In this document: piece after piece, positions 2,363 through 54,897 of the stretch
Position numbering within the stretch: the stretch's first letter is position 1
How the letters are laid out: each line of letters opens with the position of its first letter
Assembly (NCBI GenBank): GCA_052168215.1
Contig: JBQLZJ010000009.1
Span: forward strand, 16,049 to 80,048
DNA: 64,000 nt
Origin: Phycisphaerales bacterium
Lineage (GTDB): Bacteria; Planctomycetota; Phycisphaerae; Phycisphaerales; UBA1924
Direction of reading: 5' to 3'
Notes under the pieces: generated by a model
The model's input: the letters and a program-made list of their open reading frames with translations, nothing else
Told to the model about the DNA's origin: nothing
Databases searched by the model: none
Position numbers and translations under genes: made by a program

Positions 2363-2459
2363 ACGGCTCATTCATCGGGCCGCCGGAGCTTCGAGGATTC
2401 GATTTGCCCACCCGCCCCGCACCCTCGCCGAGCCGGCCGTGTGTTTGTATAGTGTCAGG

Positions 2460-8427: not shown

Positions 8428-8783
8428 TGCTCGAGGCGCTTCCCACGCTCGCGCAGGCCGGGTTCCCCGAGCCGATGCACGCGATCACGCTGTACCACTA
8501 CCTGCTGGTCTCGGCGATCATGTTTGCGCTGGGGCTGATCGGGTTCGCGACCCGTCGGAACCTGATCATCATGTTCCTGTGCACGGAGATGATGTTCCAG
8601 GCGTCGGGCATCGCGCTGGTCGCGTTCGGCCGGTTCTATCTGGACTTCACGGGTCAGGTGTTCGTGATCTTCGTGCTGACGGTGGCGGCGGCCGAGGCGG
8701 CGCTGGCGTTGGCGCTGGTGGTCCTGCTGTTCCGGCGGAAGGAATCGCTCGACGGCACGGTGTGGTCCGCCCTGCGGGGCTAG
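8424..8783 (+). CDS. nuoK: NADH-quinone oxidoreductase subunit K
   Basis: YHYLLVSAIMFALGLIGFATRRNLIIMFLCTEMMFQASGIALVAF...VLTVAAAEAALALALVV. Size and pattern fit NuoK/ND4L. Confidence 0.9.
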   Translation: MMLEALPTLAQAGFPEPMHAITLYHYLLVSAIMFALGLIGFATRRNLIIMFLCTEMMFQASGIALVAFGRFYLDFTGQVFVIFVLTVAAAEAALALALVVLLFRRKESLDGTVWSALRG

Positions 8784-8805
8784 GTGTGGCAAAGGAGCCC
8801 TGCGG

Positions 8806-11168
<2,363 letters not shown>

Positions 11169-11169
<1 letters not shown>

Positions 11170-12788: not shown

Positions 12789-12791
12789 GCC

Positions 12792-14432
12792 ATGTTGGAG
12801 AAGCTCGCCTCACTCTGGCCCGAGATGACGCTGTTCGCGGCGACCTGCGTCGTGATGGTGCTCGGTCTGTCGCCGAGCGCCGCGGTCCGCCGGCTGTGCC
12901 CGTTGCTGACGGGCCTCGCCCTGGCGGCCGCGGGGATCCTGGCGCTCGGCACCTCGCCGGTGATGACCGAGGCCCAGAGCGTGACCCCGGGGCTGATGCC
13001 GTACGCGAAGGCGGTCATCGCCCTCGTGGGCATCCTGCTGACGCTGCTGCTGCAGGGCGTGGTTGACCGGTTCGAAGAGGCCGACATCGAGGCGGGCCGT
13101 CGGCGGTTCGATCCGCTTCGTCTCACGCGCGGCGAGTTCTACGCCTTCTTCCTGTTCTCGATGACGGGGCTGATGCTGACGGTCTCGGCGGACAGCCTGA
13201 TCTGGCTCTTCCTGGCGCTCGAGCTGACGAGCCTGCCGACCTATGTCATGGTGACGATGTCCTCGCCGCGGATGCGCGCGAAGGAGGCGGGGGTCAAGTA
13301 CTTCTTCCTGGGGGCGCTTGGGGCGGCGGTCTTCCTGTACGGGTTCGCGCTGCTCTACGGCGGGACGGGCTCGGTGCACCTGACAGCGATCCGCGACGCG
13401 CTCGCGACGCAGGCCGCGGGCGAGGGCATCAACCCGGTGGCGATGACGGGGCTGATCATCGCGCTGCTCGGCGTGGGGTTCAAGGTCGCCGCCGTGCCGA
13501 TGCACTTCTACACGGCCGATGTCTACCAGGGGGCGGCGGCGCCGGTCTCGGCGATGCTCGCGTTCGTGCCCAAGACCGCGGGCTTCGTCACGATCATCAT
13601 GCTCGCCGCCCTGCCCGGCTGGACGCACGGCGACACGGGCGGACAACTGCCCGAGCTCGTCCGCGTGACGCTCTGGATCATGGCGGCGCTGACGATGTTC
13701 GTCGGGAATGTACTGGCGATCCTGCAGAGCTCCGTCAAGCGGATGCTGGCGTACTCGTCGGTCGCTCACTCGGGGTACATGCTCGTCGGCGTCATCGCCG
13801 GCCCGGGCGACAGCTTCTCGCAGAGCGGCATCGCCGCGGTGCTCTTCTACCTGCTGGCGTACGGCATCATGAACACCGGGGCGTTCGCTGTCATCGCCTC
13901 GCTCGAGACCCGGCACGCCTCGACGACGGACCTCGGCGAGCGCGTGCACGATGAAGCCGACCATCTGGACGCCTACCGCGGGCTCTGCCGGTCGAACCCG
14001 GTGCTCGGCTGGTCGATGGTGGTCTGCGCCCTGAGCCTGCTCGGCTTCCCGCTGACGCTCGGGTTCTTCGGCAAGCTGCCGCTGTTCACCGCGGGCATCG
14101 GCGCCGGCGAGATCCCGCTGGTGATCGTGCTGGGGATCAACTCGGCGATCGCGGCGTTCTACTACCTGCGTCTTGTGGCGCTGCCGATGTTCGAGCAGCC
14201 GGGCGATGAGGCCGAGGACTTCCGCGAGAGCTTCGCGCCGACGCGAAAGATCGCAGGTGTGATCGCCGCGGGCGGCGTGCTGGTGCTGACGGTGCTGGCC
14301 GGTCCGCTCATGGACGCCGCCTTCGCCGCCACGCGGGCGGATGAGCCGCGTCTCGAAGTCGGCACGAACCCCGGCGAGGCTCCCGATGCCCGCGTGTTGA
14401 CCGTCTCCGGGGCGATCGTCACCGCCGAGTAA
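12792..14432 (+). CDS. nuoN: NADH-quinone oxidoreductase subunit N
   Basis: LALELTSLPTYVMV, GFKVAAVPMHFYTADVYQGAAAPVSAMLAFVPKTAG and MLAYSSVAHSGYML. Confidence 0.9.
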   Translation: MLEKLASLWPEMTLFAATCVVMVLGLSPSAAVRRLCPLLTGLALAAAGILALGTSPVMTEAQSVTPGLMPYAKAVIALVGILLTLLLQGVVDRFEEADIEAGRRRFDPLRLTRGEFYAFFLFSMTGLMLTVSADSLIWLFLALELTSLPTYVMVTMSSPRMRAKEAGVKYFFLGALGAAVFLYGFALLYGGTGSVHLTAIRDALATQAAGEGINPVAMTGLIIALLGVGFKVAAVPMHFYTADVYQGAAAPVSAMLAFVPKTAGFVTIIMLAALPGWTHGDTGGQLPELVRVTLWIMAALTMFVGNVLAILQSSVKRMLAYSSVAHSGYMLVGVIAGPGDSFSQSGIAAVLFYLLAYGIMNTGAFAVIASLETRHASTTDLGERVHDEADHLDAYRGLCRSNPVLGWSMVVCALSLLGFPLTLGFFGKLPLFTAGIGAGEIPLVIVLGINSAIAAFYYLRLVALPMFEQPGDEAEDFRESFAPTRKIAGVIAAGGVLVLTVLAGPLMDAAFAATRADEPRLEVGTNPGEAPDARVLTVSGAIVTAE

Positions 14433-14455: not shown

Positions 14456-15427
14456 TCAGGACCAGTCGTCGCCGTCTTCGTCATCGCGGTCGCGCCGACG
14501 CCGTCGGCCGGCGGTCTGCTTGCGTCGGCGGGACTGCTCCTCGTCCCAGTCACGCTCGCCTCGATCGCCCTTGCGATCGCGTTCCTTCAGCCCGACGGTC
14601 TGCACCAGCAGGCCCGTGAGCGAGACGACGAGCCAGATGGCCGTCCACTGCGCGGCGGAGCGTTCGAGCAAGGCCTTGCCGGGCAGATCGAGCGCCTGAC
14701 TGAGCAGATAGACGGCCGGCAGCCAGAGGCCCGCGCCGGCGAACGCCGTCACCATTGCGGTCGATTTCTTCGGGAAGAAGACGCTGGCGGCGAGCCCGAG
14801 CAGCAGGCCCACGAAGGCGGCGGCCGCGAGGAGCGTGCGGTCCCGGACCGACAGCGGGTCCCACACATCCGCCTTGATCCCCACGAAGAGGTCGCGGGCG
14901 AAGGTGCCGGGGTCGCTGGCGGCCTCGCGGGCCTCGTCGAGGGTGATCTCGCCGAAGCGGTCCGAGAGGCCCGGCTGCGGTTCAGCGGGGTCGGGCGCCG
15001 GGGCGATCTCGCCCGCGAGCGTGTCGCCGGACGGCTCGGCCGGCGGCGCGGGGTTCATCTGGATGATGACGGCCGCGGCGAGCACGCCCAGCCCCGCCAT
15101 CACCCCCGAGGCCAGAACGCCGATCGCCAGGCGAAAGATGAGGATCGCGGCGAGGGCACCGACCGCGCCGCCGCCGGCGGCTCCGACGACCCCGCCGGGC
15201 AGACCGAACAGCTCGTCGAACCCGAGCCCCGGGACGGCCGCGTTGCCGAGGAACCCGCCGAGCAGGGCGCCGATGACCGCGAAGGCCGGCTTGAGCACCC
15301 GTCGGCCGCTGGCCCAGAGCATCACGCCGGTGACGATGGCGATGAGCAGCCCGGTGTGCGCCCACAGGGGGTGATCGCGCAGCGCTTCGACGAGCTGGTG
15401 CACCTGGTCGAGCTGGTCTGGATTCAT
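14456..15427 (-). CDS. Multi-pass membrane protein of unknown function with a highly charged R/D/E tail
   Basis: ATG at codon 86 of track ORF 14456..15682 gives MNPDQLDQVHQLVEAL.... The longer start would overlap the pheA leader. Contains several Gly/Ala-rich TM helices and ends ...KERDRKGDRGERDWDEEQSRRRKQTAGRRRRRDRDDEDGDDWS. Confidence 0.55.
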   Translation of the reverse strand: MNPDQLDQVHQLVEALRDHPLWAHTGLLIAIVTGVMLWASGRRVLKPAFAVIGALLGGFLGNAAVPGLGFDELFGLPGGVVGAAGGGAVGALAAILIFRLAIGVLASGVMAGLGVLAAAVIIQMNPAPPAEPSGDTLAGEIAPAPDPAEPQPGLSDRFGEITLDEAREAASDPGTFARDLFVGIKADVWDPLSVRDRTLLAAAAFVGLLLGLAASVFFPKKSTAMVTAFAGAGLWLPAVYLLSQALDLPGKALLERSAAQWTAIWLVVSLTGLLVQTVGLKERDRKGDRGERDWDEEQSRRRKQTAGRRRRRDRDDEDGDDWS

Positions 15428-16830: not shown

Positions 16831-17334
16831 CGGGGTCGGCCGCTGTCCTCGGGACGACGGCCGATGGACGAAGGGCCACCGTGTCCGAACTGAAGTCGCA
16901 GAATCCCGCTGCCCGGACCGCTGGAATATGGTCCGAGGGGGTTTCTGCGTGCTGAAGGGCGGATCCGCTGCTGGCGGCGCGAGCGCAAGGCATGGATAAT
17001 GCCGGAGCGTTCCCGGGCCGGGGAGGTCGGGGGGCGCGTGGGCTGGCGCCGGTGCGTCGGCCCGGGGGGCGGGCGGGCAAGGAGCCCGCAAACGGTCCGC
17101 GTCGGCTTGAGAGTCGGCCTTTGGTCCGGTAGCCTCCTCGACACACGCGGGAGAGCGGCTGCGGAACGGATGCGCCCGCTCGAACCCGAAGGCAGGTCCC
17201 GAACCGGCGTCGCACGCTCGGCGGCGGGGAGTGGGGGCTCTCGCTTGAGAGTCCGGGACCAGACATTGCGTGCGACGGGCCGCCACGGATGTGCGCTCGC
17301 CGCGACGCGAACACCGCGGGACAGGAAACCAGAT

Positions 17335-20300
17335 ATGAGCCGTTCGTCTGACGCGCGTCGTCGCTATGTCCGCTCCGCTGATTCCATCGTCCGTCGGGCG
17401 AAGCAGAGCGGTCTGACCGCGGATGGTCTGACCTCCGCCGCGGGGCACGCGGGGGGCATCGAGCGTGCCCGCGTGGAGCAGCTCGAGCCGCGCAAGCTGC
17501 TGTTCAGCGTGACCGTTGACGACAGCTTCATCGATCCGGTGACGGGGCTTGGGCTGGCCGAGGGGTTCTTCGGGTACTTCATCCCGCTGCTGCAGACCTC
17601 CGAGGATGTGACCATCGAGCCCGACGAGCTCGTGACGGAGGACTTCAACGACGAGGATCTGGGCGCCGTCTTCTCGGGCGATGTGTTCGATCAGAGCGAT
17701 GTGCTCTTCCTTCGCGGCGGTGCGGTGACCAGCCGGATCGTGCAGCCCGTGCCGGATGTCGACGAGCAGCGGCTCGATCTGCGGATCACGAACCCGGGCT
17801 CGTTCTTCTCGTTCGCGACGCTGTCGGACTCCGAGAACGCGAACGGGCCGCGGAATGTCAACACCGCCGTCACCTTCAGCGTCGGAAGCGGCGGCAACGC
17901 GTTCCGGCTGCTCAACGGCCAGATCGAGGTCGAGCTGCTGTTCGAGGGCCAGGTGGTCGACACCTTCGACCAGGCGGACCTGACCGCGATCGGCCAGAAT
18001 GTCGGCGCCGAGACGAACTACACACTGTTCAGCCGGAACCAGGGCGTGTTCGGCGGTGTGTTCGATGAGGTGCGGTTCGTCCAGCGCGCGCCCACGGGCG
18101 GCAACCCGGAGCAGGCCGGCGACTTCTTCATCGACGACCTGAACTTCCTCCAGCCGGCGGGGAACTTCGCCGATGTGATCGGCCCCCGCGCCTTCGGCGT
18201 GTCGTTCAGCATCCTGGCGCCCGTCGGCGCCACGGTCCAGTTCCTCGACATCTACGGCCGGGACATGATCCAGACCATCCGCGTCGGCGGGTCGGCGGGC
18301 AACACGAATGTCGTGCGGGGCGACTTCGACGATGACGGCGTGCCCGACTTCAACGACGGCATCGGCCGGATCATCATGACCGGCTTCGACAGCACCAGTT
18401 CCTTCAAGCTGACGGGCGGCACGATCGAGTTCTTCGACGGCCCGGCGCCGGACGGAGCCGACTTTACCGAGGGGGGCGACGCGGCGTTCTTCTACGCGGA
18501 AACGCTCAGCCTGTACGACGACTTCGAGGAAGCGGGCTTCGGCTTCTTCATCTCGGGCGAGGACAGCACGGTCTCCGGCCTGCCGGATGACGGCCCCGGC
18601 ACGGTCATCATCGGCTCGCAGTTCGTCCGGCCGCTGAACGACTACGACCCGCTCGAGGCTGCTTCGCTCGACTTCGATTTCAGCCGGGACGACCAGGGCA
18701 TCTTCCTGAACGACGGCTCGTCCATCGGGCAGGTTACGACGAACGCGATCCTGTTCGGCTCGAGCAACTTCAACGGCTCGGTCGGTCAGTTCTCGTCGGG
18801 CTACTTCCTCGGGTCGCTGGCGGTCGCGGGCGACCTCGGCGGGTTCTACGCGGGCACGGACGCCGGCGCGTACCAGATCGACCCCGACGCCGTTGACGAT
18901 GACGATGTGATCGTCGACTTCCCGCTGACGAACTCGCAGGTGGTCGTCGGGCGGACGCTGGGCGACTTCGCGGTCGCCGGCCGGAGCTTCGTCGACATCA
19001 CCGTCGAGGGCGACCTGAGCTCGCTGGATGTCGAGCCGGACGATGTGCTGGTGTACGACGAGCGCGAGCTCGTCTTCGGCATCAGCCTGGACGCGGACCC
19101 CGCGGCGGTGATCACCGCGCAGGCCGAGTATCTCAACGGCGGGTTCCAGGTGCTGCCGCAGATCTTCACGAGCTCCGCGATTGGCACGATTCCCGGGACG
19201 ATCGTCAACGCGACGGCGTTCGGCGATACCTACTACCGCAACGACTCGATCCTCAACGCCGAGTTCGTCGGCGGCGCAGCGTCGGCGGTGGTGGTCCGCG
19301 GCTCGCTGGGCGGGCAGGACCCGATCAACACGGGCCAGGACGCGAGCGATGTGTACGCCTTCGCCGTCGACGGTTCGACCGAGGTGGTCATCGAGACGCT
19401 CTCCTTCACGGGCGTCGGGTTCCGCGTGGTCGATGTCGACGGGCGAACCGTCGCGGCGACCTCGGGCGACTTCGACACGGCGTTCGGGCAGGTCGTCCGG
19501 TTCAACCCGGACACGCCCGGCGTGTACTACCTCGTGCTCCACAACCCGACCGGTCAGGATGTCGACGAAGAGATCGACGCGGTCTACAGCGTTCTGATCT
19601 CCGGCATGGCGCCGACGACGCTCGGGTCGTACCGCACGGGCCTCGGCGGCGGCAGCACGCAGGACACCCGCGACAACGCGCCGGACGGGTTCCAGGAGCG
19701 CGCCTCGATCACCGTGCTCTCCGGCAGCGTCGGCTCGGTGCGCATCGGTACCGGCTATGTCTCCGGCGCCGGCACGGAGGAGAGCACCGTTGACTTCATC
19801 AATGTCTTCGGCGAGGAAGACGACGAGCAGCTCAACGCGAACGGCCTGAGCCTGTCGACGCCGGGCAGCCTGTACAGCTTCGTCAGCGGCGGCGACATCA
19901 ACTCCGCAGACGGCCGCGCCAGCGCCCCCGTGTCGCTCTCGATCGGACGCGATCTCGGCACCTTCCACACCGGGCGTTCGCCCATCGCCGGCATCGGCGA
20001 CGCGGGCCTGGTTCGGCTGGATGTCGGCGGCCGGATCGGCCTGATCGACATCAACGGCAGCATCGCCGCCGACACCGAGAACGCCGACGGATTCCTCAAC
20101 CGATTCCCCGGCGATACCTTCATCGTTCGGACCGGGCTCGACCCGGATCTCGACGGCGACATCGGGCTCATCATCGTGGGCCAGCAGGTCACCGGCGACG
20201 CACTGACGATCGACACCAGCGCCTCACCCGGCGCGGTGGTCGGCGGGCTCCTGATCTCGCAGCGGACCGAGGACTTCGGCCGGGGTGGAGACTTCGGCGA

Positions 20301-23300
20301 CGACCTGGGCATCTTCGACTCGATCAACGGTGTGAACCTGGTGCTCGGGCAGGACAGCGACATCCGCTTTGTGGACACACCGCGCATCGACCTGCTCGAA
20401 GGGCAGAACAGCGCGCTGCCGCTCATCATTGGTCAGCCCTTGGAGCTGGTCGATGACGCCGGCGGGCGGGTGGAGATCGTGGTCTCGCAGGACGGCATCA
20501 TCGGCCAGGTCGTCGCGGGCCGCGTGATCGTCGTCCCGGTCGACGACGGCGAGGGCGTGGCGATCGCGCGGATCGAGATCGACCTGACCGGCACCGGCAC
20601 GATCGCCGGCGGTCGGACGCTGACGATCCGCGGCCTGGCGGGGCAGGATGTCAACGATGTCATCTCGATCGGACGCATCCTCGTGACCGCGTCGGACGCG
20701 AACTCGCGCATCCAGATCACCGGCAACGCGCAGATCGATGTCTGGCGCATCGATGCGCCGGAGGGCCTCGACCGAATCGAGAACTTCACGCCGCGCGGCG
20801 ACATCGTCGCGATCGACACCCTGAGCCTCGACACGCTGCGCATCACCGGCGGCGATCTCGGCCGGACGCAGGTGCCGGAGTACGGCCCGCGGCTGATCGG
20901 CCCGGTGCTCGGTCTGACGCCGGGCCTCAACGGCACGGTCGGCGGAGCGCTCGGGTTCACGCAGGGCGAGATCACCGATCAGGACTGGAACGGCCAGATC
21001 TACCGGCCGACCACGGACACGAGCTTCGCCGCCGGCAACGCGTACCTCGACGACATCGGCTCGCCGTTCGACGATGCGCTCAACGGCCTGGCGGTGCGGA
21101 CGGGCAGCGTGACCCTCGTGGAGTCGAACCGCTCGATCGGCGATGTGATCCTGCAGGACGCCGCCGGCGACCTGACCACGGTCCGCGCCAACGCGGATCG
21201 CATCACGCCGAACGGTGAGTTCGAGGGGATCATCGGCTCGATCTTCGCGGGCCAGGACATCGATCTGGTGGACATCGGCGACGGCATCATCAGGACCGAG
21301 ACGGGCACGAACACGCCCTTCGCCGAGACGGGCATCTACGCCGAGCGGTTCATCCGCCGTGTGCAGTCGACGATCGACGGCGCGTTCATCAGCTCCAACA
21401 TCATCGCGGCGTTCCGCGACGCCGGCACCGGCGTTGTCAGCCCGTTCGGCACCGAGGGCATCGACTCGATCAGCCTCACCGGGGGTGACATCCGCGACGC
21501 GTTCATCGGCTCGACCGATCTCGACCAGTTCTACCGGAGCCGGGACTACGGCAACGAGGGCCGGTTCCGCGGCGATCTCCGGCAGATCACGCTCACCAAC
21601 GGCGACCTGTTCGGCTCGGTCGTGACCTTCCGCGATGTCGAAACGATCACCATCACCAACGGCTTCTTCGACGCGACCGACCTGAGCGTGCTCGGCGAGC
21701 TCAGCGGTTCGATCACCGCCGACGGCTTCCGCAACACCACGCTGGAGGGCGACACGCTCGAGTTCCGTCTGAGCCGCATCGCCGTCGGCGAGGATCTGGA
21801 GCAGCTGACCGCGCGGCAGGGCGGGACGATCTCGGATACGACGATCTCCGTGCTCGGCGACATCGAGAACGGGCTGACCGCCGGCAACCTCGTTCGGACG
21901 AACCTGCAGGTCGCCAACACGATCCGCTCGCTCATCGTGTCCGACAGCATCCTGGCGAGCTCCATCACCGCGGGTCAGCTCGTCGCGGTGACGGTCACGG
22001 ACACCGTGCAGCTCAGCTCCTTCTCGATCGCGGGCCCGATCGTCAACTTCCGTGTGCAGAACGAGATCGTGCGGTCGCAGATCTCGGTGACCGGCCCCGA
22101 CGGCCGGATCGATCGCCTGTCGGCCGCCAACGATCTGGACGCGGACATCTCGTCCTCCGGCCGGATCGGCACGATCGAGTCGCAGAACGGCTCGATCGCG
22201 GGCTCGATCGTCACGACGACCGATCGCGGCGACATCAACATGATCAGCGCCGCGGTCGACCTGGCCGCCAGCACCGACATCGGCGGCGACCTGAACATGC
22301 TCGAGGTCGGGCGGAACATCGGCAGCGCCGACGCGCCGAGCGTCGTGCTCGTCCGCGGCGATGTGACCGAGCTCGATGTCTCGGGTGGGCGGATCATCTC
22401 CGACCTGCGAGTCGGCGGCCGGGTGACGCAGGGCATCACCGTCGGCGGCGTGACGAACCTGCCCACCAACGCCAAGGCCGCCGACGGCGACATCACCGTC
22501 TTCGGCCGCATCGCCGAGGTCTCGATCACCGGCGACTACGACGGCCTGATCACCAGCGAGTCCGGCGGCATCGGCACCGTCACGATCCTCAACGGCTCGC
22601 TCCTCGCCGGCGGCGGCGTGATCGCCAACGACGGTGGCATCGGCACGGTCTCCATCATCGCCGGCCATCTCCTCGGCAACATCTACGCCGACCAGACCAT
22701 CAACCTGATCTCCGTGCAGTCCTCTGCGGACGGGTCGTTCGGCGACATCGGCATCAACAACCAGCTCTCCTCGGGCACCGCGTCCTCGGACAGCGCCCGC
22801 AACCAGCTGCCGCCGGGCGTCGTCGCGACCGGGGGCAACGACGGCCCCGTCATCGCGTCCGGCCGGGCGATCAACAGCATCATCGTCTCGGGTGGCGACA
22901 TCATCGAGGCGCTGATCTACGCCCGCACCTCGATCGGCACGATCGCCGTCAACGGCTCGATCCGGAACAACCAGAGCTCGTCGACGCAGGATCAGACCAC
23001 GGTCATCGCCGCGGGCGATCTGGTTCGAGAAGTGCTGGTGACAGGCGCGGCCACCGATGTGCTCTTCCTGGCCGGTGTGACGAGCTTCGGCGACGACCCG
23101 ATCTTCACCATCGCCGACCCGCTCTACAACGACCGCGCCGGCGGCACGGGGGCTGACGCGGACACGATCAAGTCCGGGCGGATCCAGACCGTGACCATCG
23201 GCGGGAACGCGACGGATGTCGCCTTCTCCGCCGGCATGACCGCCGGCAACGACGGCGAGTACAACACGGGCGACGCCGGCGAGGGCCATGTCGTCGGCCT

Positions 23301-26300
23301 GAGCATCGTCGATCAGATCACGATCCTGGGCACGCAGACCAATGTCACGGTCAACGCCGACCGGGCCGCCGCGTTCGTCAACGGCACGAATGTCCGCGCC
23401 AGCAACTTCGGCGGGCGTGCCCCGAACGCCGACGGCCTGCTCGCGCCGCTCACCGACGCGTTCGTTGGCGGCTCGATCGACCTGAGCCAGCTCGGCACGC
23501 TGGTGCCGCGCAACGGCTCGCAGGTGTTCACCTGGAACGGGACATCGTTCCGCGTGAACTGGAACGCGCCCGCGCCGACCTCCGCCGCCGAGGCCGCGGG
23601 ACAGGGCGTCGTCTGGGACGCCAGCACGGGCACGCTGATCCTCGCCAACACCCGTATCACGCACGATGTCACGATCACCGTGCTCGACAACGACGCCAAC
23701 GCGGGCACCGCGCTGCCCTCGCTGATCGACTTCAACATCCGGTCCAACGACGAGGCGTCCATCGGCACGCTGCGCATCACGGGCGAGAACGGCACGGCGA
23801 CGGTCGCCGGCAACTCGAGCATCGTGATCGACAACTACGCCAGCACGATCGCGCTGGGCAACTTCAACAGCTCGGGCCGGATCGTCGTCGGGGCCGACAT
23901 CGGCACGCTGACCGCGACGCGCATCGCCGGCGCATCCGTCCAGGCGAACTTCGTCAGGACCACCAACATCACGGGCAGCGTCGTGACGCTCAGCGGCCAG
24001 GCGCCGCGCTTCGATTACAGCGGCGCGGGCTCGTTCACCGTGACGGGCAACGCCACGGCCGAGTTCAATGTCGATCGCTCGATCAACACGCTGCGGGTGA
24101 ACGGGTCGGCGAACGGCCTGCTCTTCCGCGCCGGCGGCTCGCTGACCGCCTTCGAGGCCGGCAGCGTCTCCCGCTCGCGCCTGAGCGTGGCGAACACGAT
24201 CGGCTCGATCGATGTCGTCGGCGATGTCTTCGATACCTCGTTCATCGCGGGCGGCGACCTCGGCACCGACCTGCGCGACGGCGACGGCTCAAGGTCCTCC
24301 GACATCGACCGCGTCACCAGCGGCATCATCAACGAGGTCGACATCGGCGGCAGCTTCGCCGAGTCCGACATCGTCGCGGGCTTCCTCCGCGGGGCCGACG
24401 GGTTCTTCGGCAGCGCCGACGATGCCGCGGCCGCGGGCATCTCCTCGATCGGCACGGTGACGATCGACGGCACGAGAACCGGCTCGAATGTCAACTCCGA
24501 GTCGTACGCGATCCTCGCCGCCGGCACGATCAACGAGGCCACCATCGGCGGTCAGGACGCGGAGTCGCGCGGCAACCTTGTCGTCGGCCCGGTCACCTCG
24601 GTGCCGCTGCCGATCCGCGTTGATGGGTTCCGAGTCCTGCAGGACGCGCGGAGCTACACCGCCTTCTTTACTTTCAACCAGAACATCGACGAGTCCTCCT
24701 TCCTCGATGCGCTCCGCATCCGGGAGGCACGCAACGAGGACGATGCCCAGCAGCCCTGGGACCCGGCCGATCCGCTGAGCCTGCAGGTGCCCACGCCGGG
24801 CGTGCCGGGTTCGGGCGACTACTCGATCACCTACGACGAGGCAACCTTCACCTTCGCCGTCACCATCGATCGCGCGATCACCGATCGCGATCTGGTCGAC
24901 AACGGCGACGGGACCTTCAGCCTGCCCAGCGCGCCGGCGCCGGGCGTGTACCGGTTTGAGCTCTCGTCCGCGGTGCTCCGCGCCCTCAACGCGGGCGCAC
25001 GGCTTGACGGGGACGGGGACGGGTTCTCGATCGTCGGCGACGACTTCTCGGCTGACGCGGTCGTCGGCGACGCCGGCGATGTCGCCGGTCCGCGCCCCAT
25101 CGAGCGCGTGACGGTCATGGGTGACAACGGCGACGCGACCATCAACTTCTACGGTGCGGTCAATCTCGACCTGCTGCTCGATTCCAACCGCACGCCGGAC
25201 GGCCTGCCGGAGACCAACACCGTCGTCCGGATCAACGGCGCCCTGGGCGATCACCCGGACCGCGATCTCAACCTGTTCGGCTTCGGCGGCGACAAGGACC
25301 TGTACGCGGTCACGCTGCAGGCGGGCCAGATCCTCCGCCTCGGCGAGGTGACCGGTCCCGCGAACCAGCTGATCCGCTCCGTGTACTTCCAGCCCGTCGA
25401 CGGGAGCGAGCCGCTGCTCGTCAGCACGGCGTCGGGTGGTTTCGAGTCCACCAACGAGACGGCCCAGGCCGTCGTCCTGCCCAGCTCGACGCCCGAGCTC
25501 ACGGACATCGGCACCGACACCGCGCTGCTCATCAAGCAGACCGGGACCTACTACATCGTCGCCGAGTCCGCCTCGGTCAGCGAAGCGCCGTTCACCCAGG
25601 GCGCGGTGCCGAACCAGGACCCGCAGCCCAACCAGATCGGCAACTACGCCTTCGACATCGAGGTCTTCGACGACGGCAACTCGGGCTTCAACGCCGGCAC
25701 CGACGCGGGCAACGGCACGAACATCGTCTACGCCCCGCCGCCCGCCGCCTTTACGCAGCCCGGCCAGATCATCACCATCGGCGACTTCTCGTTCACGCTC
25801 GAGAACGGCGTGGTGCGGGGTCAGAACAGCGACGGCTCGATCGTGTCGACCCGGAACGGCACACGGCTCGAGAGCGTCATCACCTCCTCGATCGGTTCGC
25901 CCGGGTTGGCCGGGGCGCCGGGCGAGATCCAGGCCGATGTCGACATCTTCCACCTCAACAACTTCCAGCCCGTGCAGGCCGGCTCGCTCGTCACGATCAC
26001 GGTCGGCCTGAGCGACACCGGCGCGGATCTCGGCTCGACGATCCGCGACGAGGCCGACGCCATCGTCACCGGGTTCCAGTCGCTGACGAACCAGTCACGG
26101 AATGTGCAGTTCGCGCTCTTCGAGACCACGAACTCCAGCGACGCCGAGAGCGCCGACCTGGTGTTCAGCCCGACCGACTTCCAGTCGCGGGCCGGCACGC
26201 CCGACACGATTCTCGCCAGCAACGGCGCGACGCGATACGGCTATGACAGCAACGGCGATTTCTTCATCTCGTTCGTTGTTCCTCCCTCGTTCGACGGCGG

Positions 26301-27087
26301 TAACGGCACCTTCGCGGTCTATCTCCAGGGCGCGTTCCGGGCCGACTACGAGCTGCGCGTTGTCACCCAGGGCACCGCGAGCTACACCCCCCGCACGCAG
26401 AATGTCCTCATCGAGGCCAACGGCGGGACCATCGACTGGCTCGGTATCCAGGACGAGGTATCGTTCGGCGGCTTCGACGCCGGCACGCTGGGCTTTGCGG
26501 GCCTGGTCAGCAATGTCAGCGTCGAGAGCTTCATCCTCGCCGAGGTCACGCAGCGGCTGAACGGCTTCTTCGACGCCATCGGGCTGGATGTGAACTTCTC
26601 CACCAACCCGGCCGAGTTCGAGTTCGAGCCCTTCTCAACGGTCTTCCTCACCAGCGACGCCAACCCGGTCGGCCTGCTGACGCTGTCGGACTACGGCGTC
26701 AGCGAGCGGTCCGACCCGTTCAACACCGATCTCGAGGACGAGGCCGTCGTCTTCGCCCCGGCGTACGCCACGCTCGGCTTCTCGCCCAGCCCGACGGACC
26801 TGGAGAACTTCATCGACTCCATCGCCGCGGGCATCGGCCGCCGCGTCGGCGAGCTCGTCGGCCTCCGGCTCACCGTGTCGAACCCGCTCGCTGATGTCGG
26901 CGGCAACATCGATATCCAGAGCGAGGAGTCGATCGCCTTCCCGAGGCTGGACCCGCAGTCCAGCTATGTCTTCTCGCCCGACAGCCGCGAGCTGGTCGGC
27001 TTCGACAACTTCATCGACGACACCGCCTTCTTCCTGGGCGACCAGCGGGCCGTCTCGCTGCTCGACACCATCCTGGCCGACGACTGA
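17335..27087 (+). CDS. Giant (3,250 aa) acidic LEPR-XLL-motif extracellular-type protein with PPC-like modules and a beta-helix-like repeat tract
   Basis: ATG at codon 113 of track ORF 16999..27087; the upstream part is R/G-rich non-coding-like. LEPRKLL lies at aa 50-56 (nt 17482-17502). Ca-binding-like loops: RGDFDDDGVPDFNDG and ARLDGDGDGF. PPC-like modules: DASDVYAFAVDG...PGVYYLVLHN and GDKDLYAVTLQAG...TGTYYIVAES. Degenerate approximately 20-residue G/I/V/D/T-rich turns run over about nt 21900-24600. Confidence 0.85.
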   Translation: MSRSSDARRRYVRSADSIVRRAKQSGLTADGLTSAAGHAGGIERARVEQLEPRKLLFSVTVDDSFIDPVTGLGLAEGFFGYFIPLLQTSEDVTIEPDELVTEDFNDEDLGAVFSGDVFDQSDVLFLRGGAVTSRIVQPVPDVDEQRLDLRITNPGSFFSFATLSDSENANGPRNVNTAVTFSVGSGGNAFRLLNGQIEVELLFEGQVVDTFDQADLTAIGQNVGAETNYTLFSRNQGVFGGVFDEVRFVQRAPTGGNPEQAGDFFIDDLNFLQPAGNFADVIGPRAFGVSFSILAPVGATVQFLDIYGRDMIQTIRVGGSAGNTNVVRGDFDDDGVPDFNDGIGRIIMTGFDSTSSFKLTGGTIEFFDGPAPDGADFTEGGDAAFFYAETLSLYDDFEEAGFGFFISGEDSTVSGLPDDGPGTVIIGSQFVRPLNDYDPLEAASLDFDFSRDDQGIFLNDGSSIGQVTTNAILFGSSNFNGSVGQFSSGYFLGSLAVAGDLGGFYAGTDAGAYQIDPDAVDDDDVIVDFPLTNSQVVVGRTLGDFAVAGRSFVDITVEGDLSSLDVEPDDVLVYDERELVFGISLDADPAAVITAQAEYLNGGFQVLPQIFTSSAIGTIPGTIVNATAFGDTYYRNDSILNAEFVGGAASAVVVRGSLGGQDPINTGQDASDVYAFAVDGSTEVVIETLSFTGVGFRVVDVDGRTVAATSGDFDTAFGQVVRFNPDTPGVYYLVLHNPTGQDVDEEIDAVYSVLISGMAPTTLGSYRTGLGGGSTQDTRDNAPDGFQERASITVLSGSVGSVRIGTGYVSGAGTEESTVDFINVFGEEDDEQLNANGLSLSTPGSLYSFVSGGDINSADGRASAPVSLSIGRDLGTFHTGRSPIAGIGDAGLVRLDVGGRIGLIDINGSIAADTENADGFLNRFPGDTFIVRTGLDPDLDGDIGLIIVGQQVTGDALTIDTSASPGAVVGGLLISQRTEDFGRGGDFGDDLGIFDSINGVNLVLGQDSDIRFVDTPRIDLLEGQNSALPLIIGQPLELVDDAGGRVEIVVSQDGIIGQVVAGRVIVVPVDDGEGVAIARIEIDLTGTGTIAGGRTLTIRGLAGQDVNDVISIGRILVTASDANSRIQITGNAQIDVWRIDAPEGLDRIENFTPRGDIVAIDTLSLDTLRITGGDLGRTQVPEYGPRLIGPVLGLTPGLNGTVGGALGFTQGEITDQDWNGQIYRPTTDTSFAAGNAYLDDIGSPFDDALNGLAVRTGSVTLVESNRSIGDVILQDAAGDLTTVRANADRITPNGEFEGIIGSIFAGQDIDLVDIGDGIIRTETGTNTPFAETGIYAERFIRRVQSTIDGAFISSNIIAAFRDAGTGVVSPFGTEGIDSISLTGGDIRDAFIGSTDLDQFYRSRDYGNEGRFRGDLRQITLTNGDLFGSVVTFRDVETITITNGFFDATDLSVLGELSGSITADGFRNTTLEGDTLEFRLSRIAVGEDLEQLTARQGGTISDTTISVLGDIENGLTAGNLVRTNLQVANTIRSLIVSDSILASSITAGQLVAVTVTDTVQLSSFSIAGPIVNFRVQNEIVRSQISVTGPDGRIDRLSAANDLDADISSSGRIGTIESQNGSIAGSIVTTTDRGDINMISAAVDLAASTDIGGDLNMLEVGRNIGSADAPSVVLVRGDVTELDVSGGRIISDLRVGGRVTQGITVGGVTNLPTNAKAADGDITVFGRIAEVSITGDYDGLITSESGGIGTVTILNGSLLAGGGVIANDGGIGTVSIIAGHLLGNIYADQTINLISVQSSADGSFGDIGINNQLSSGTASSDSARNQLPPGVVATGGNDGPVIASGRAINSIIVSGGDIIEALIYARTSIGTIAVNGSIRNNQSSSTQDQTTVIAAGDLVREVLVTGAATDVLFLAGVTSFGDDPIFTIADPLYNDRAGGTGADADTIKSGRIQTVTIGGNATDVAFSAGMTAGNDGEYNTGDAGEGHVVGLSIVDQITILGTQTNVTVNADRAAAFVNGTNVRASNFGGRAPNADGLLAPLTDAFVGGSIDLSQLGTLVPRNGSQVFTWNGTSFRVNWNAPAPTSAAEAAGQGVVWDASTGTLILANTRITHDVTITVLDNDANAGTALPSLIDFNIRSNDEASIGTLRITGENGTATVAGNSSIVIDNYASTIALGNFNSSGRIVVGADIGTLTATRIAGASVQANFVRTTNITGSVVTLSGQAPRFDYSGAGSFTVTGNATAEFNVDRSINTLRVNGSANGLLFRAGGSLTAFEAGSVSRSRLSVANTIGSIDVVGDVFDTSFIAGGDLGTDLRDGDGSRSSDIDRVTSGIINEVDIGGSFAESDIVAGFLRGADGFFGSADDAAAAGISSIGTVTIDGTRTGSNVNSESYAILAAGTINEATIGGQDAESRGNLVVGPVTSVPLPIRVDGFRVLQDARSYTAFFTFNQNIDESSFLDALRIREARNEDDAQQPWDPADPLSLQVPTPGVPGSGDYSITYDEATFTFAVTIDRAITDRDLVDNGDGTFSLPSAPAPGVYRFELSSAVLRALNAGARLDGDGDGFSIVGDDFSADAVVGDAGDVAGPRPIERVTVMGDNGDATINFYGAVNLDLLLDSNRTPDGLPETNTVVRINGALGDHPDRDLNLFGFGGDKDLYAVTLQAGQILRLGEVTGPANQLIRSVYFQPVDGSEPLLVSTASGGFESTNETAQAVVLPSSTPELTDIGTDTALLIKQTGTYYIVAESASVSEAPFTQGAVPNQDPQPNQIGNYAFDIEVFDDGNSGFNAGTDAGNGTNIVYAPPPAAFTQPGQIITIGDFSFTLENGVVRGQNSDGSIVSTRNGTRLESVITSSIGSPGLAGAPGEIQADVDIFHLNNFQPVQAGSLVTITVGLSDTGADLGSTIRDEADAIVTGFQSLTNQSRNVQFALFETTNSSDAESADLVFSPTDFQSRAGTPDTILASNGATRYGYDSNGDFFISFVVPPSFDGGNGTFAVYLQGAFRADYELRVVTQGTASYTPRTQNVLIEANGGTIDWLGIQDEVSFGGFDAGTLGFAGLVSNVSVESFILAEVTQRLNGFFDAIGLDVNFSTNPAEFEFEPFSTVFLTSDANPVGLLTLSDYGVSERSDPFNTDLEDEAVVFAPAYATLGFSPSPTDLENFIDSIAAGIGRRVGELVGLRLTVSNPLADVGGNIDIQSEESIAFPRLDPQSSYVFSPDSRELVGFDNFIDDTAFFLGDQRAVSLLDTILADD

Positions 27088-27121: not shown

Positions 27122-27158
27122 CGCCCCCGGGGACCCTCGCCCGGGGGCGTTTCGTGTT
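27122..27158 (+). terminator. Rho-independent-type terminator after the giant gene
   Basis: cgcccccggg-gaccctcg-cccgggggcg forms a perfect 10-bp G/C stem with an 8-nt loop, followed by tttcgtgtt. It lies 35 nt after the TGA at 27085-27087. Confidence 0.7.
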
Positions 27159-27308: not shown

Positions 27309-28808
27309 GTGCGCACGCAGAGCGATACAACCACTCCCCGTCCTCTCCATCACACCCGGCCCAGGCCGATCACCAAGGGACGGTTCACCGCCGCCCTGAT
27401 CGCGATCACGCTCCTCGCGGCGGGGCTGCGCCTGTACGAGCTCGGATCGCCCGGCTTGTGGAACGACGAGCTCTACACCGTCCGCTCGGCGCTCGATCTG
27501 GCGAACACGCGCCCCGACAAGACGCTCGGCTATGTCCCGACATGGCTCATGCTCCAGGCGATCGGCGCGGGGGATCTGAACCCGCACGACTCCTCGAACT
27601 GGCAGGAATCGGGTCTGACACCGTTCATGATCCGGCTGCCCACGGCGATCGTCGGCATCCTCACGATCCCGGCGGTCATGCTGCTCGGCCGCGCCGCGAT
27701 CTCGCCGCGGTTCGGCATCGCGCTCGCGTTCATGTTCGCGGTCTGCCCGTGGCACATCTACTGGTCGCAGGGCGCTCGGTTCTATACCCCGCAGATGCTC
27801 TTTATGTCCGTGAGCATGCTGGCGTACTGGGCCGGGATCCGGCACCGCTCGACCCGGTGGCAGATCGTTGCGGCCGCATCCTTCGGTCTCGGCGTGCTGT
27901 CCCAACCGAACGCGGTCATCCTGGCCGTGGTGCCCGTCGTCGATCTCGCGTGGACGCTCCTTCGCCGCAAGCCGCTCCGGATCGGCCTCGCGGGCATGGC
28001 GGCGTGGGCGGTCGCGGGCATCGTCACGGCAAGCATCCTCGCCTTCGGGGTCTATTCCGGCTGGGACGACTACCAGCAGTTCCTCGGCGCACAGAAGCCA
28101 TCGGGCATCGCGGGGGCGTTCTCGCTACCGCTTGGCGTGGCGTTCATGCTCACACCCGTGGTCGCGCTCGCGGTGGTGCTCGGGTGGTTCGAGCTGTACC
28201 GGCATGCGCCACGCGCCGCCGTCTTCTTCGGCGTCGCGGCGGCGGCGCCCGTGGTCGGCTACAGCCTCTGGGCGCTCGGGAACAATGTCGGCCTGCGCTA
28301 CCTTGTCGTGTCGATCCTGGGGCTGCTGGCGCTCGGTGCCTATCTTCTGATGCGCATGACCTTCGTGCTCGCCCGCCGACGCGGCGCGCTCTACGCCCCC
28401 ATTCCCGCGATCGTCGTCCTTGCGTCCGTCAGCTCCCTGCTCGCCAGCTACTTCACGACGGGCTACGGCTTCCGCCCCCGCTGGGCGGAGGTGTACGAGG
28501 AGCTCGATCGGCTCAAGCAGCCGGGCGACCGCATCGTCGATCGTCACCCGATCGTTGCGTCGTACTACCTCCGCCGCCCGGTGGACCTGTTCCCGCCGAA
28601 CGCCCAGGCCTTCGACGAGACCAACCAGCCCGTCATCTTCGCCATGGAGACCGATCTGCCCGTCGGCTGGATGCTCCGCCGAGGCGAGCTGCTTGCCACC
28701 CGGGACATCCGGGCACTCCGGCCGCTCGCCGAGGTGCATGTCCTCCGGCTCGCCCCGGCCACGCCCGCGCGGTCGGTCGCGGACCAGACCGTCGCTCCCG
28801 AGGGCTGA
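27309..28808 (+). CDS. GT-C fold glycosyltransferase, ArnT/PMT-like (family 39/83 type), polytopic membrane protein
   Basis: N-terminus FTAALIAITLLAAGLRLYELGSPGLWNDELYTVRSAL, which is the LRLY-LG...LW-DE first-loop acidic motif typical of ArnT/PMT-like enzymes. Many TM helices follow, then a soluble C-terminal part. Confidence 0.7.
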   Translation: MRTQSDTTTPRPLHHTRPRPITKGRFTAALIAITLLAAGLRLYELGSPGLWNDELYTVRSALDLANTRPDKTLGYVPTWLMLQAIGAGDLNPHDSSNWQESGLTPFMIRLPTAIVGILTIPAVMLLGRAAISPRFGIALAFMFAVCPWHIYWSQGARFYTPQMLFMSVSMLAYWAGIRHRSTRWQIVAAASFGLGVLSQPNAVILAVVPVVDLAWTLLRRKPLRIGLAGMAAWAVAGIVTASILAFGVYSGWDDYQQFLGAQKPSGIAGAFSLPLGVAFMLTPVVALAVVLGWFELYRHAPRAAVFFGVAAAAPVVGYSLWALGNNVGLRYLVVSILGLLALGAYLLMRMTFVLARRRGALYAPIPAIVVLASVSSLLASYFTTGYGFRPRWAEVYEELDRLKQPGDRIVDRHPIVASYYLRRPVDLFPPNAQAFDETNQPVIFAMETDLPVGWMLRRGELLATRDIRALRPLAEVHVLRLAPATPARSVADQTVAPEG

Positions 28809-29066: not shown

Positions 29067-29474
29067 ATGAACAGATCCGGTCGAAACATCCTGTCGCTGA
29101 ACACGCTGATGCGGGCCGACGATTCGTCCGAGCGGAGCGACGCCCGCCGTCACGGCCGTGTCCGCATCGAGCTGATGAGCTGCTCCCTGGGCACCGTGCT
29201 GGACCTGTCCCGCTCGGGGATGCGCGTGCTGGCCCGTCGTCGGCGCGAGCTGGTTGCCAACATGAAGCACCAGATCGTCCTGGAGGCGTTCGATCAGCGC
29301 GTCGAGCTGCCCTGCCGCATCGCCTGGATCGAGAAACGCGGCCTGTTCAAGTCGGAGATCGGTATCGAGTTTGGCGAACTGACCGATGACCAGGCGGCGG
29401 TGCTGTGCAGCATCGCGCGGACCGCGGCCTCGAACGCGCAGCTGGGCTCGTTCTCCACACGCCGCGCGTCCTGA
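29067..29474 (+). CDS. PilZ-domain c-di-GMP-binding protein
   Basis: RRHGRVR (RxxxR) followed by LDLSRSGMRV (D-x-S-x-x-G), within a protein of single-domain size. Confidence 0.75.
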   Translation: MNRSGRNILSLNTLMRADDSSERSDARRHGRVRIELMSCSLGTVLDLSRSGMRVLARRRRELVANMKHQIVLEAFDQRVELPCRIAWIEKRGLFKSEIGIEFGELTDDQAAVLCSIARTAASNAQLGSFSTRRAS

Positions 29475-33720: not shown

Positions 33721-33770
33721 TGGATGAAGGTACCACGCCGACCGTGATCGGAGCAAGAGCAGGGTTGAGA

Positions 33771-40071: not shown

Positions 40072-40248
40072 GGCAAGGACCTCCTCAGGTTTCGTTTCGG
40101 ACTGCAGTTTACCGGACAGCGAAGTGGGGATTGATGGTGCAGAGAGAAACCTGCGCGGGCTTGATTTCAACAATCAATAAGCCTAGAGAAATATCGGCTA
40201 TTGCTCGGCTTCGGGCGAGCCCGGCCGGGCGCAACTGGAGGTCCAGCC

Positions 40249-54882: not shown

Positions 54883-54897
54883 GGCAGCGCTGCCCTG

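Follow-up and report, generated by a model that had tools for sequence, protein, structure and literature searches.

The window, that is, the entire 64-kb stretch of DNA analyzed here, harbors a giant open reading frame (17335-27087; codons 17335-27084, stop 27085-27087), followed by a weak terminator-like hairpin at 27134-27147; this gene and all the features described below lie on the forward strand. Computed translation yielded a protein of 3,250 aa with 0 Cys, 7 Lys, 8 Met, 8 His, and 7 Trp, in which G (12.7%), D (9.6%), A (8.8%), V (8.4%), T (8.3%), and S (8.2%) are the commonest residues and which ends in ...AVSLLDTILADD. These counts coincide with those of a previous sequence-only reading, which had described by eye a Cys-free product of 3,250 codons with about seven Lys, and the hyper-acidic character noted on the same occasion was confirmed by a computed pI of 4.05 and a net charge of about -264 for a mass of 337.7 kDa. 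Neighboring proteins encoded in the window contain 0.87% Cys and 2.3% Lys; at this Cys frequency, ~28 Cys would be expected in the giant protein, so that the probability of finding none is ~5e-13. The protein is likewise very poor in Lys, His, Met, and Trp.

The ATG at 17335 is preceded, at a distance of 6 nt, by a Shine-Dalgarno-like AGGAAA (17323 to 17328), and AGGAG or GGAA was found 6-9 nt before the aligned ATG in nearly all of 65 orthologues. An in-frame ATG is also present upstream, at 16999, which was rejected as the start: the extension it would add is Arg/Gly-rich and Cys-containing, the codon sits within a conserved GATAAT box, and ~60 orthologues begin at the aligned ATG with a strong Shine-Dalgarno before it. 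As this extension also lacks any hydrophobic stretch, no upstream in-frame start with a canonical signal peptide was found. The GATAAT box itself (16995 to 17000), located ~335 nt 5' of the start and overlapping the spurious ATG, proved conserved when the upstream regions of 8 loci were aligned, all from the clade sharing >=50% protein identity, and may constitute a promoter element. A further promoter-like element at 17107 to 17135 comprises TTGAGA (-35-like), a 17-nt spacer, and TAGCCT (-10-like), with hexamers that are invariant or nearly so and a spacer that varies; as a putative promoter it would imply a 5' UTR of ~200 nt. A stricter promoter-consensus scan did not call this element. The presence of a structured RNA in the 5' UTR was considered and rejected, since RNAalifold gave -4.3 kcal/mol with 1 covarying pair and promoter hexamers account better for the conserved blocks; an Rfam scan of the window returned 0 matches.

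The first 56 residues (17335 to 17502) form a leader with a basic N-region (MSRSSDARRRYVRS...), an (R)LAxxAG-type block, which reads GLTSAAG in the window protein, and a terminal VEQ-LEPRKLL. The LEPRKLL motif (aa 50-56; 17482 to 17502) is the sole one of its kind in the 64-kb window and represents the core of the PF07595/'LEPR-XLL'-type planctomycete leader, in agreement with the motif recognized in the sequence-only reading. In the AlphaFold (AF2) model the leader is predicted to be disordered (pLDDT <50), and the fold begins at F57. The leaders of 214 relatives have medians of 44 aa for length and +6 for net charge, with 97% of them being positive, and the L, E, and R of the motif are the sole residues at their positions in 214/214 sequences, under a search pattern that permitted alternatives. 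The most hydrophobic 10-aa stretch within the first 80 aa reaches a KD of 1.25, which indicates that a signal-peptide core is lacking, as had been stated before. The N-terminus presents an LExRxLL after a basic stretch and without a hydrophobic h-region, as in other leader proteins of this type. The claim that there is no recognizable export signal therefore holds with regard to Sec and Tat signals, but not with regard to the basic leader and its motif, since the LExRxLL leader has been proposed as a planctomycete-specific N-terminal export signal (Studholme 2004, as quoted in PMC8567305). In Tuwongella immobilis, 8 of the 10 longest proteins carry an LExRxLL-type motif, and 8 of the 20 detected motif proteins were confined to the SDS-soluble S3 fraction, in which outer-membrane proteins such as BamA fractionate (PMC8567305). 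In profile searches, PF07595 scored 11.6-13.8 bits against the window protein, under the 25.5-bit gathering threshold, and was the only recurrent Pfam match of the family (11 of 64 orthologue N-termini at E<=1, best 0.0057, all sub-threshold). No NCBIfam family, LEPR-XLL or other, matched the whole protein at E<=1 or the 400-aa tiles at E<=10, and no leader-type NCBIfam model matched any of the 64 orthologue N-termini at E<=1.

The conservation of the leader is accompanied by a pronounced change in Cys tolerance at the motif. C-terminal of it, the relatives contain 23 Cys in 343,972 residues, as opposed to 12 in 4,887 before it (background 0.87%); an independent set of relatives has 9 in 265,439 residues, and the combined sets hold 32 Cys in ~609,000 post-leader residues. 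The exclusion is ~37-fold weaker upstream of LExRxLL, and a sequence signature of this sharpness is unusual; it points to a constraint acting on the exported portion.

More than 200 full-length, colinear relatives were retrieved, all from Phycisphaerales-type MAGs and ~3,000-3,300 aa in length, with a few reaching 5,500 aa. A set of 109 homologues exhibits 30-64% identity, nearly all of them spanning 98-100% of the query at 3,000-3,340 aa. The GTDB species genomes yielded 206 matches, the best 80 of which all belong to Phycisphaerales-type MAGs with one locus each, and a search of 1.84 billion representatives yielded 209 matches, every one giant or a fragment. The family occurs in marine, freshwater, soil, and wastewater MAGs. 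The upstream order nuoLMN-(small gene)-pheA-giant gene was observed in ~40 of the 80 fetched GTDB loci, while the downstream genes vary; the PMT_2 glycosyltransferase encoded 3' of the giant gene is conserved in the closest relative only, and its functional association with the giant protein was rejected as a family feature for this reason. In contrast to variable repeat adhesins, conservation is even over the full length of the protein. These comparisons identify the giant protein as a member of a previously unstudied family of orthologues that spans the order with conserved length and synteny, which sets it apart from idiosyncratic repeat proteins.

Searches of the whole protein and of 400-aa tiles with Pfam and NCBIfam (hmmscan) produced no significant match. 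Catalytic families were likewise unmatched in the Pfam, NCBIfam, and PDB-sequence searches, and family profiles (full-length, N-terminal tile, and C-terminal domain) gave 0 or chance-level matches to PDB sequences. Structural models were built with AlphaFold for aa 1-1200 and aa 2051-3250 (pLDDT ~82) from mixed tile and full-length alignments, the former being modeled as one compact body (pTM 0.81). Its first domain is a predicted lectin/CBM-like jelly roll at aa 57-305 (17503 to 18249; pLDDT ~80-93), with boundaries taken from the secondary-structure string and Foldseek matches to the FlaA1 sheath protein and to CBM8/22/32/51/4 (E 2e-4 to 1e-2, TMt <=0.58). The acidic loop RGDFDDDGVPDFNDGIGRI at aa 328-346 (18316 to 18372) matches DxDxDG and is a likely Ca2+ site, given that N340, G342, and G344 are invariant and D330, G335, P337, and D341 nearly so. 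The previous description of the protein as Ca-loop-rich was nevertheless overstated, as the 3,250 aa contain just one GGxGxD and three DxDxDG-like sequences. A PPC/collagen-binding-like β-sandwich follows at aa ~651-768 (19285 to 19638), for which Foldseek retrieved the collagen-binding domains of ColG/ColH and a Bacillus anthracis PPC domain (prob 1.0, TMt 0.55-0.66, 17-22% identity), with a sub-threshold score of 15.2 bits against Pfam PF04151 (cutoff 25.9).

The central part of the protein is a long all-β region at aa ~790-2420 (19702 to 24594), supported by AF2 and self-comparison, whose repetitive core at aa ~1250-2406 (21082-24552) bears internal repeats with a period of ~20 aa. In the hhalign self-comparison, off-diagonal matches within aa 1257-2406 attained 97.6-99.7% probability, Gly and hydrophobic residues of the rod show lag-20 autocorrelation, and the models of aa 790-1200 and 2051-2420 consist of β strands only, in a repeating long/short pattern. 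We infer from these patterns that the rod core (>1,100 aa) is probably a β-solenoid, a wording kept cautious because AF2 covers aa 1-1200 and 2051-3250 and because a canonical β-helix was absent from the Foldseek top 50 of the C-terminal model (aa 2051-3250).

Three further predicted β-sandwiches lie C-terminal of the rod. The Ig-like sandwich at aa ~2425-2550 (24607 to 24984; pLDDT 66-90, mostly 81-90) fits the alpha-2-macroglobulin MG and Ig-type sandwiches retrieved by Foldseek in whole-chain output that gives no query ranges. The PPC-like sandwich at aa ~2590-2782 (25102 to 25680) has a nearly invariant GDHPD and invariant D2653 and D2655 (GGDKDLY in the window protein; consensus GDxDVY), and is weakly similar to aa 648-756 of the same protein in the self-comparison. 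The sandwich at aa ~2810-3014 (25762 to 26376), seen in the AF2 model, exhibits a PPC-like pattern (DVDIFHLNN ... YELRVV) and invariant D2868, D2870, Y2968, G2969, Q2998, G2999, and Y3005. The top Foldseek match of the C-terminal model was the pair of tandem collagen-binding domains of ColG (5iku, E 4.5e-5, prob 1.0), and this tandem match to ColG s3a-s3b supports the last sandwich as well. The PPC fold of ColG/ColH (PF04151) is matched at no fewer than two places, aa ~651-768 and ~2590-3014, here as accessory modules of a non-protease giant protein and with sequence scores below the Pfam threshold. Similarity to the N-terminal linker with which the ColG CBD binds Ca2+ is apparent in the acidic Asp pairs.

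The last segment, at aa ~3015-3250 (26377 to 27084), is a family-specific α/β domain (AF2 pLDDT mostly 70-89) with predicted helices at aa 3063-3080, 3153-3174, and 3239-3247, the last being the short terminal helix VSLLDTILA. Q3022, E3027, W3035, D3127, N3130, and D3135 are invariant, and an RRxGEL helix is present. Its profile retrieved only 14 fragments of the same family from an index of 5.8 billion proteins, only giant relatives from the 1.84 billion representatives, and nothing from the PDB sequences at E<=10, while a BFVD fold search returned generic fibre/tail proteins only, with low TM-scores. The helix 'AAVGRRxGELxGLR' was considered as a degenerate metzincin HExxHxxGxxH and rejected, as the zinc ligands are not conserved; the order of secondary structures is compatible with this idea, and the consensus His of SEHSD is Arg in the window protein. 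No clear Foldseek match to a zincin fold was obtained, and the meprin match (E 0.016) may equally reflect its MAM/TRAF sandwich.

In line with the earlier observation that no secretion genes are nearby, no secretion-system gene was detected in the 64-kb window, and ABC/MFP/TolC genes were found neither in the window nor in the 10-kb flanks of three relatives. HMM searches detected no PEP-CTERM, LPXTG, T9SS CTD, or dockerin at the C-terminus, the autotransporter translocator PF03797 was unmatched, and the modeled C-terminus is α/β instead of a barrel, all of which agrees with the absence of such ends in the sequence-only reading. A faint T9SS-tail match (E 0.088) falls at aa ~684-740, within the first PPC-like domain. 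As regards two-partner secretion, there is no PF05860 match, no h-region, and no POTRA/ShlB-type (TpsB) gene nearby. The TpsA exoprotein FhaB/FHA of Bordetella, which has ~3,590 aa, nonetheless offers a parallel: both types of protein have ~3,000-3,600 aa, few or no Cys, and a rod of β-strand repeats, begin with a conserved module, and close with a C-terminal domain of a different kind, and for both unfolded export would be expected; the giant protein differs in lacking a Sec signal, the TPS domain, a nearby TpsB, and a canonical β-helix in Foldseek. Among the closest known systems are also the RRLxxExLExRxLLA giants of Rhodopirellula baltica and T. immobilis (PF07595 'Planc_extracel'; NCBI 'LEPR-XLL'), which share a basic N-terminus followed by LExRxLL without a hydrophobic core, a very large size, extracellular-type β domains, and a planctomycete origin. 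The family described here is distinguished from them by scores under the Pfam threshold and no NCBIfam match, by the extra RLAxxAG block of the leader, whose median length also appears greater than that of the R. baltica consensus, and by being composed of single-copy, syntenic, length-conserved orthologues of the class Phycisphaerae without a recognizable Pfam domain.

Together, these observations lead us to favor, with a probability of roughly 60%, a core and vertically inherited envelope or surface protein of the Phycisphaerales that is exported as a structural or adhesive fibre, and action as a fibre, not as an enzyme or toxin, is the best explanation of the data. The leader, not a Sec/Tat peptide, would direct export by the route taken by other motif-bearing giant planctomycete surface proteins, and the chain would cross the envelope unfolded, which would explain the post-leader Cys exclusion, since disulfide bonds would block the passage of the chain or tie it to itself or its neighbors through cross-links. 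Outside the cell it would fold into a rigid rod tens of nm long, whose very acidic surface would probably bind Ca2+; with coils of ~20 aa and 0.48 nm each, ~1,600 aa would amount to ~35-40 nm. The jelly-roll, PPC, and Ig-like folds, as modeled, are typical extracellular-type modules, and their fold class, at modest TM-scores, suggests ligand binding, such that the lectin-like and PPC-like modules might bind polysaccharide, particulate ligands, or the cell's own envelope. Several findings count against this reading: PF07595 matched below its threshold and NCBIfam yielded no LEPR-XLL match, the leader appears longer than the R. baltica consensus, no exporter gene is linked to the giant gene, and no further LExRxLL-leader proteins were detected in ~1.5 Mb of Phycisphaerales DNA.

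The same exported protein could instead tile the surface as an S-layer-like coat or join a proteinaceous wall. Classical S-layer proteins share the acidic, Cys-free, Met/His-poor, and Thr/Ser/Gly/Ala-high make-up observed here, core-gene status and a strong Shine-Dalgarno would fit an abundant structural protein, and the N-terminal 1,200 aa are predicted to form a compact body. This is, however, unlikely in our view: neither SLH, PEP-CTERM, nor any other anchoring or lattice domain was detected with Pfam/NCBIfam, an elongated molecule, not a tile, is what the long rod of repeats would lead one to expect, 338 kDa is beyond the size range of typical S-layer subunits, and the literature examined reports no S-layer for Phycisphaerae. 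The type I secretion resemblance pointed out in the sequence-only reading, which would entail a C-terminal signal, ABC/MFP/TolC encoded elsewhere in the genome, and Ca2+-dependent folding outside the cell, fits the composition (Cys-free, very acidic, Gly/Asp-rich) and did not extend beyond it. The giant size and the conserved extreme C-terminal helix LLDxxL, which might embed a signal, can be adduced in its favor, and the giant RTX/type I adhesins LapA, SiiE, and MpIBP are similarly giant, acidic, Cys-free, and probably Ca2+-stabilized, with modular β-sandwich domains and a ligand-binding end. Against this, a single GGxGxD match (aa 1936) and no tandem GGxGxDxUx nonapeptides were found in 3,250 aa, the C-terminal ~236 aa are modeled as a conserved domain with a fold of its own instead of a loose, unstructured signal, linked ABC/MFP/TolC genes were found neither in the window nor in the 10-kb flanks of three relatives, and the conserved leader, together with the abrupt shift in Cys tolerance seen at LExRxLL, points to N-terminal targeting, which makes this route very unlikely.

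Another alternative is a secreted polysaccharide-active enzyme, with a lyase- or hydrolase-type β-helix rod flanked by carbohydrate-binding modules, to which we assign a slim chance. The CBM-like jelly roll and the PPC-type accessory domains would suit such an enzyme, and some cultured Phycisphaerae are linked to algae and polysaccharide use; yet no GH/PL/CE or catalytic family was matched in Pfam/NCBIfam even in 400-aa tiles, the top Foldseek matches include no enzyme β-helix, and the rigid length and synteny across habitats are unlike those of substrate-specific CAZymes. Least probable of all is a protein that stays inside the cell as a scaffold or cytoskeletal element, serving, for instance, in FtsZ-less division. 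A cytoplasmic location would follow from the missing Sec/Tat signal, neither a classical signal peptide nor a transmembrane segment is present, and the core gene is located among housekeeping genes, but a near-absolute exclusion of Cys with depletion of Lys, His, Met, and Trp is atypical of cytoplasmic proteins, the PPC, CBM-like, and Ig-like folds are of extracellular type, and the leader motif accompanies surface proteins in other planctomycetes.

Returning to the exported fibre, a bolder version of it appears doubtful at present: the family would be a universal cargo of a Planctomycetota-specific, Sec-/Tat-independent pathway, with the basic leader and its invariant LExRxLLF junction as recognition and perhaps cleavage signal, a post-junction Cys ban that reflects unfolded transit, and a ~35-40-nm rod that is essential to the envelope and not an accessory adhesin. 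Catalogues of giant genes in planctomycetes go back almost two decades, and we know of no LExRxLL giant planctomycete protein for which an export route or function has been established. Most giant surface proteins are variable and located in genomic islands, whereas the gene described here occurs once per genome throughout an order whose genomes are small (3-4 Mb), as an orthologue with conserved synteny and length. Such orthology would provide a clean handle for phylogenetic profiling of the exporter or peptidase, for leader-reporter tests, and for approaching the function of a core 338-kDa rod. The family also represents a large 'dark' protein space, in which 3,250 aa without a Pfam, NCBIfam, or PDB-sequence match model well and could seed domain families.

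The ORF finder listed the giant gene at 16999-27087 on the + strand, and translation from the ATG at 17335 yielded 3,250 residues followed by a single terminal stop. This ATG is well supported as the start of the gene; AGGAAA lies 6 nt upstream of it, and about 60 orthologues start at the aligned ATG, after AGGAG or GGAA. The ATG at 16999 was rejected as a start because it falls inside a conserved GATAAT box and the in-frame extension back to it is Arg/Gly-rich, includes Cys and lacks any hydrophobic stretch. No upstream in-frame start with a signal peptide was found. The computational translation contains no Cys, in agreement with the sequence-only reading, together with only 7 Lys, 8 Met, 8 His and 7 Trp, and is dominated by Gly, Asp, Ala, Val, Thr and Ser (computed mass 337.7 kDa, pI 4.05, net charge about -264). 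In ten neighbouring proteins of the window, the shares of Cys, Lys, His, Met and Trp are 0.87%, 2.3%, 2.7%, 3.0% and 1.8%, respectively; the last four residues are thus each about tenfold rarer in the giant protein, and against this Cys background the chance probability of observing no Cys in 3,250 residues is about 5e-13.

A search of 5.8 billion proteins with the giant protein returned 109 matches, nearly all with 30-64% identity, 98-100% query coverage and a length of 3,000-3,340 aa, while a few longer relatives (3,800-4,330 aa) were colinear with it and carried insertions. The named sources were all Phycisphaerales, Phycisphaeraceae or "Planctomycetota" MAGs, and the only annotations were "hypothetical protein" or "beta strand repeat-containing protein"; no characterised family was matched over the full length. 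The species genomes of GTDB contain 206 stretches that code for a relative; the best 80 of these occur one per genome, all within the same order and including several complete chromosomes. An exhaustive HMM search of 1.84 billion representatives with the C-terminal 846 aa (E<=1e-3) retrieved only 209 proteins, either giants of 2,700-5,500 aa matched at their own C-terminus or fragments; the family is an isolated island of sequence space. Conservation is uniform over the full length, with about 100 invariant positions and no hypervariable stretch. In about half of the best 80 loci, the giant gene is preceded by nuoJKLMN, an unknown small gene read in the opposite direction, and pheA, in this order (pheA in 42, nuoN in 41), down to 34% protein identity, whereas the downstream genes vary. 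Such a pattern marks a core gene passed on by vertical inheritance and is unlike that of an island-borne adhesin.

The 504-nt intergenic region between pheA and the giant gene contains blocks that are conserved among the relatives sharing at least 50% protein identity; they were noted in the window and upstream of the orthologue in the relatives' loci L005, L008, L010, L011, L012, L040, L045, L052 and L060. These include the GATAAT box (16995-17000, +) and TTGAGA-17 nt-TAGCCT (17107-17135, +), in which the hexamers are conserved and the spacer is free. The latter looks like a sigma-70-type promoter, which would leave a 5' UTR of about 200 nt; RNAalifold found no convincing RNA structure.

The N-terminal alignment resolved four consecutive elements, namely a basic stretch M-x-R/K-S-R-R...RPYVR, a variable linker, an RLAxxAG block and h-E-x-L-E-x-R-x-L-L-F-(S/T/A)-L-T-(I/V). 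The leaders of 214 long relatives are 44 aa long at the median and carry a median net charge of +6 (positive in 97%), against -0.053 charge per residue in the remainder of the protein, and the L, E and R of the motif were the sole residues at their positions in 214/214, though the pattern permitted alternatives. PF07595 ("Planctomycete extracellular") was the sole recurrent Pfam family on 64 member N-termini, always sub-threshold (11/64), and NCBIfam gave no match. In Tuwongella immobilis, the motif occurs on 8 of the 10 longest proteins, and 20 of the 52 motif-bearing proteins were detected by proteomics, 8 of them in the SDS-soluble S3 fraction only, in which BamA and other outer-membrane proteins are commonly recovered (PMC8567305). 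The giant protein accordingly carries, in extended form, the proposed planctomycete export signal. A classical signal is absent, as previously claimed: the first 80 aa have no hydrophobic core (maximum 10-aa Kyte-Doolittle value 1.25), no transmembrane-like segment occurs anywhere in the protein, and a lipobox is lacking because there is no Cys. The broader claim that no export signal is recognisable is not supported, given the extended LExRxLL leader, and the paradox it posed largely dissolves. The motif also marks a compositional boundary. Across 108 motif-bearing homologues, 23 Cys were counted among the 343,972 residues after LExR (0.007%) and 12 among the 4,887 residues of the short leaders preceding it, so the constraint on Cys applies after the motif and is relaxed in the leader. 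An independent set of 81 deep-search representatives had 9 Cys in 265,439 residues, with 73/81 Cys-free; acidity is common to all family members.

AlphaFold2 was run on two segments with alignments of 30 sequences each, aa 1-1200 (pLDDT 81.8, pTM 0.81) and aa 2051-3250 (pLDDT 82.5, pTM 0.62). The leader, aa 1-56, is predicted to be disordered (pLDDT <50), and the fold begins at F57. When compared with the PDB by Foldseek, the N-terminal model matched jelly-roll lectin/CBM folds (FlaA1 sheath protein, CBM8/22/32/51/4) and the PPC/collagen-binding domains of ColG, ColH and B. anthracis (prob 1.0, TMt 0.55-0.66, about 20% identity), while the best match of the C-terminal model was the tandem ColG collagen-binding domains (E 4.5e-5), followed by MG, CUB, MAM and Ig-type sandwiches. 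The region of aa ~1250-2406 proves internally repetitive when the family profile is aligned with itself (hhalign probability 97.6-99.7%, offsets of about 42 and 75-81 aa), Gly and hydrophobic residues recur at lag 20, and the model of aa 2051-2420 is all-beta with long and short strands alternating every ~20 residues. This region probably forms a beta-solenoid rod; the reading stays inferential because the top Foldseek matches included no canonical beta-helix and aa 1201-2050 lie outside the models. The last ~236 aa are modelled as an alpha/beta domain with an RRxGEL helix, with invariant Q3022, E3027, W3035, D3127, N3130 and D3135, whose profile matches its own family only. Among the deep-search proteins P0259-P0264, P0271, P0272, P0245 and P0248, a sister group of ~2,700-3,030 aa has in common with the family no more of the C-terminal module than its Ig-like and first PPC-like part, without this domain; other relatives reach 5,088-5,497 aa.

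Taken together, the most economical reading is that of an exported structural or adhesive cell-surface rod, given the extracellular type of its modules, its extreme acidity with a few conserved Asp-rich loops, the ban on Cys that starts at the leader junction, a leader of the surface-protein type, and its standing as a core gene preceded by a strong ribosome-binding site. FHA/TpsA and RTX adhesins are likewise giant Cys-poor exoproteins, obliged to cross the envelope unfolded. The giant protein resembles them in size and Cys poverty but has no TPS domain, no C-terminal barrel and one RTX motif, and partner genes for either system are absent from the window; the earlier likeness to type I secretion substrates thus fades, and a T1SS cargo is less well supported than the surface rod. 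The same holds for a polysaccharide-active enzyme, to which the CBM-like folds might point and for which HMM and profile searches over the whole protein detected no catalytic family, for a cytoplasmic scaffold, set against the leader and the extracellular-type modules, and for an S-layer-like coat, which would share the surface location. Pfam annotation of the whole window confirmed that no secretion component (ABC/MFP/TolC, TpsB/BamA-like, GspD or other) lies near the gene, and the exporter must therefore be encoded elsewhere. Giant planctomycete surface proteins, the leader motif and ordinary beta modules as building blocks are already known; new are an order-wide, syntenic, length-conserved orthologue without a database family, its extended leader, its private C-terminal domain and an exceptionally clean Cys-exclusion boundary. 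The family offers a tractable handle on the export route of proteins with this leader, proposed as an export signal in 2004.

The window also encodes FtsK, a ChlI-like ATPase, an M1 peptidase, PgpA and PgsA. Between nuoN and pheA, 14456-15427 (-), which runs against the direction of the giant gene, encodes a protein of 323 aa that begins with a membrane-like segment and matches nothing in Pfam; tblastn found it in 18 loci, between nuoN and pheA or the giant gene where present. On the 3' side lie PMT_2 (27309-28808, +; GT-C, protein-mannosyltransferase/ArnT-like) and PilZ (29067-29474, +). PMT_2 could possibly glycosylate the Ser/Thr-rich giant protein, which would not be a family feature, as the window and the nearest relative, L012, are the only ones to have it at this place. 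Six ORFs with coding-type GC3 have faint or no Pfam matches and lack the LExRxLL motif: 59474-61177 (+), 61265-62020 (-), 39511-40173 (-), 42842-44338 (+; 498 aa, marginal Laminin_G_3 match), 44984-45805 (+) and 32962-33756 (-). Two SpoIIE/PP2C-type phosphatase genes, one with FHA and GAF domains, lie at 50672-53548 (-) and 62192-63817 (+), and nuoB (55979-56551) is apart from nuoJKLMN (7381-14432). In the relatives' loci L002-L004, RluD, BrkB, nuoB and RNase III start 1-5 kb 3' of the giant gene, and 2 of the 3 also have SpoIIE close by; in the window they lie ~27 kb further away and inverted (53573-59337, minus). The intervening block at 27.3-53 kb holds PMT_2, PilZ, a flavoreductase (FMN reductase), SnoaL proteins, LepA, a GT4 glycosyltransferase with two epimerases and an HD-domain protein, an arrangement that indicates a local rearrangement or insertion.
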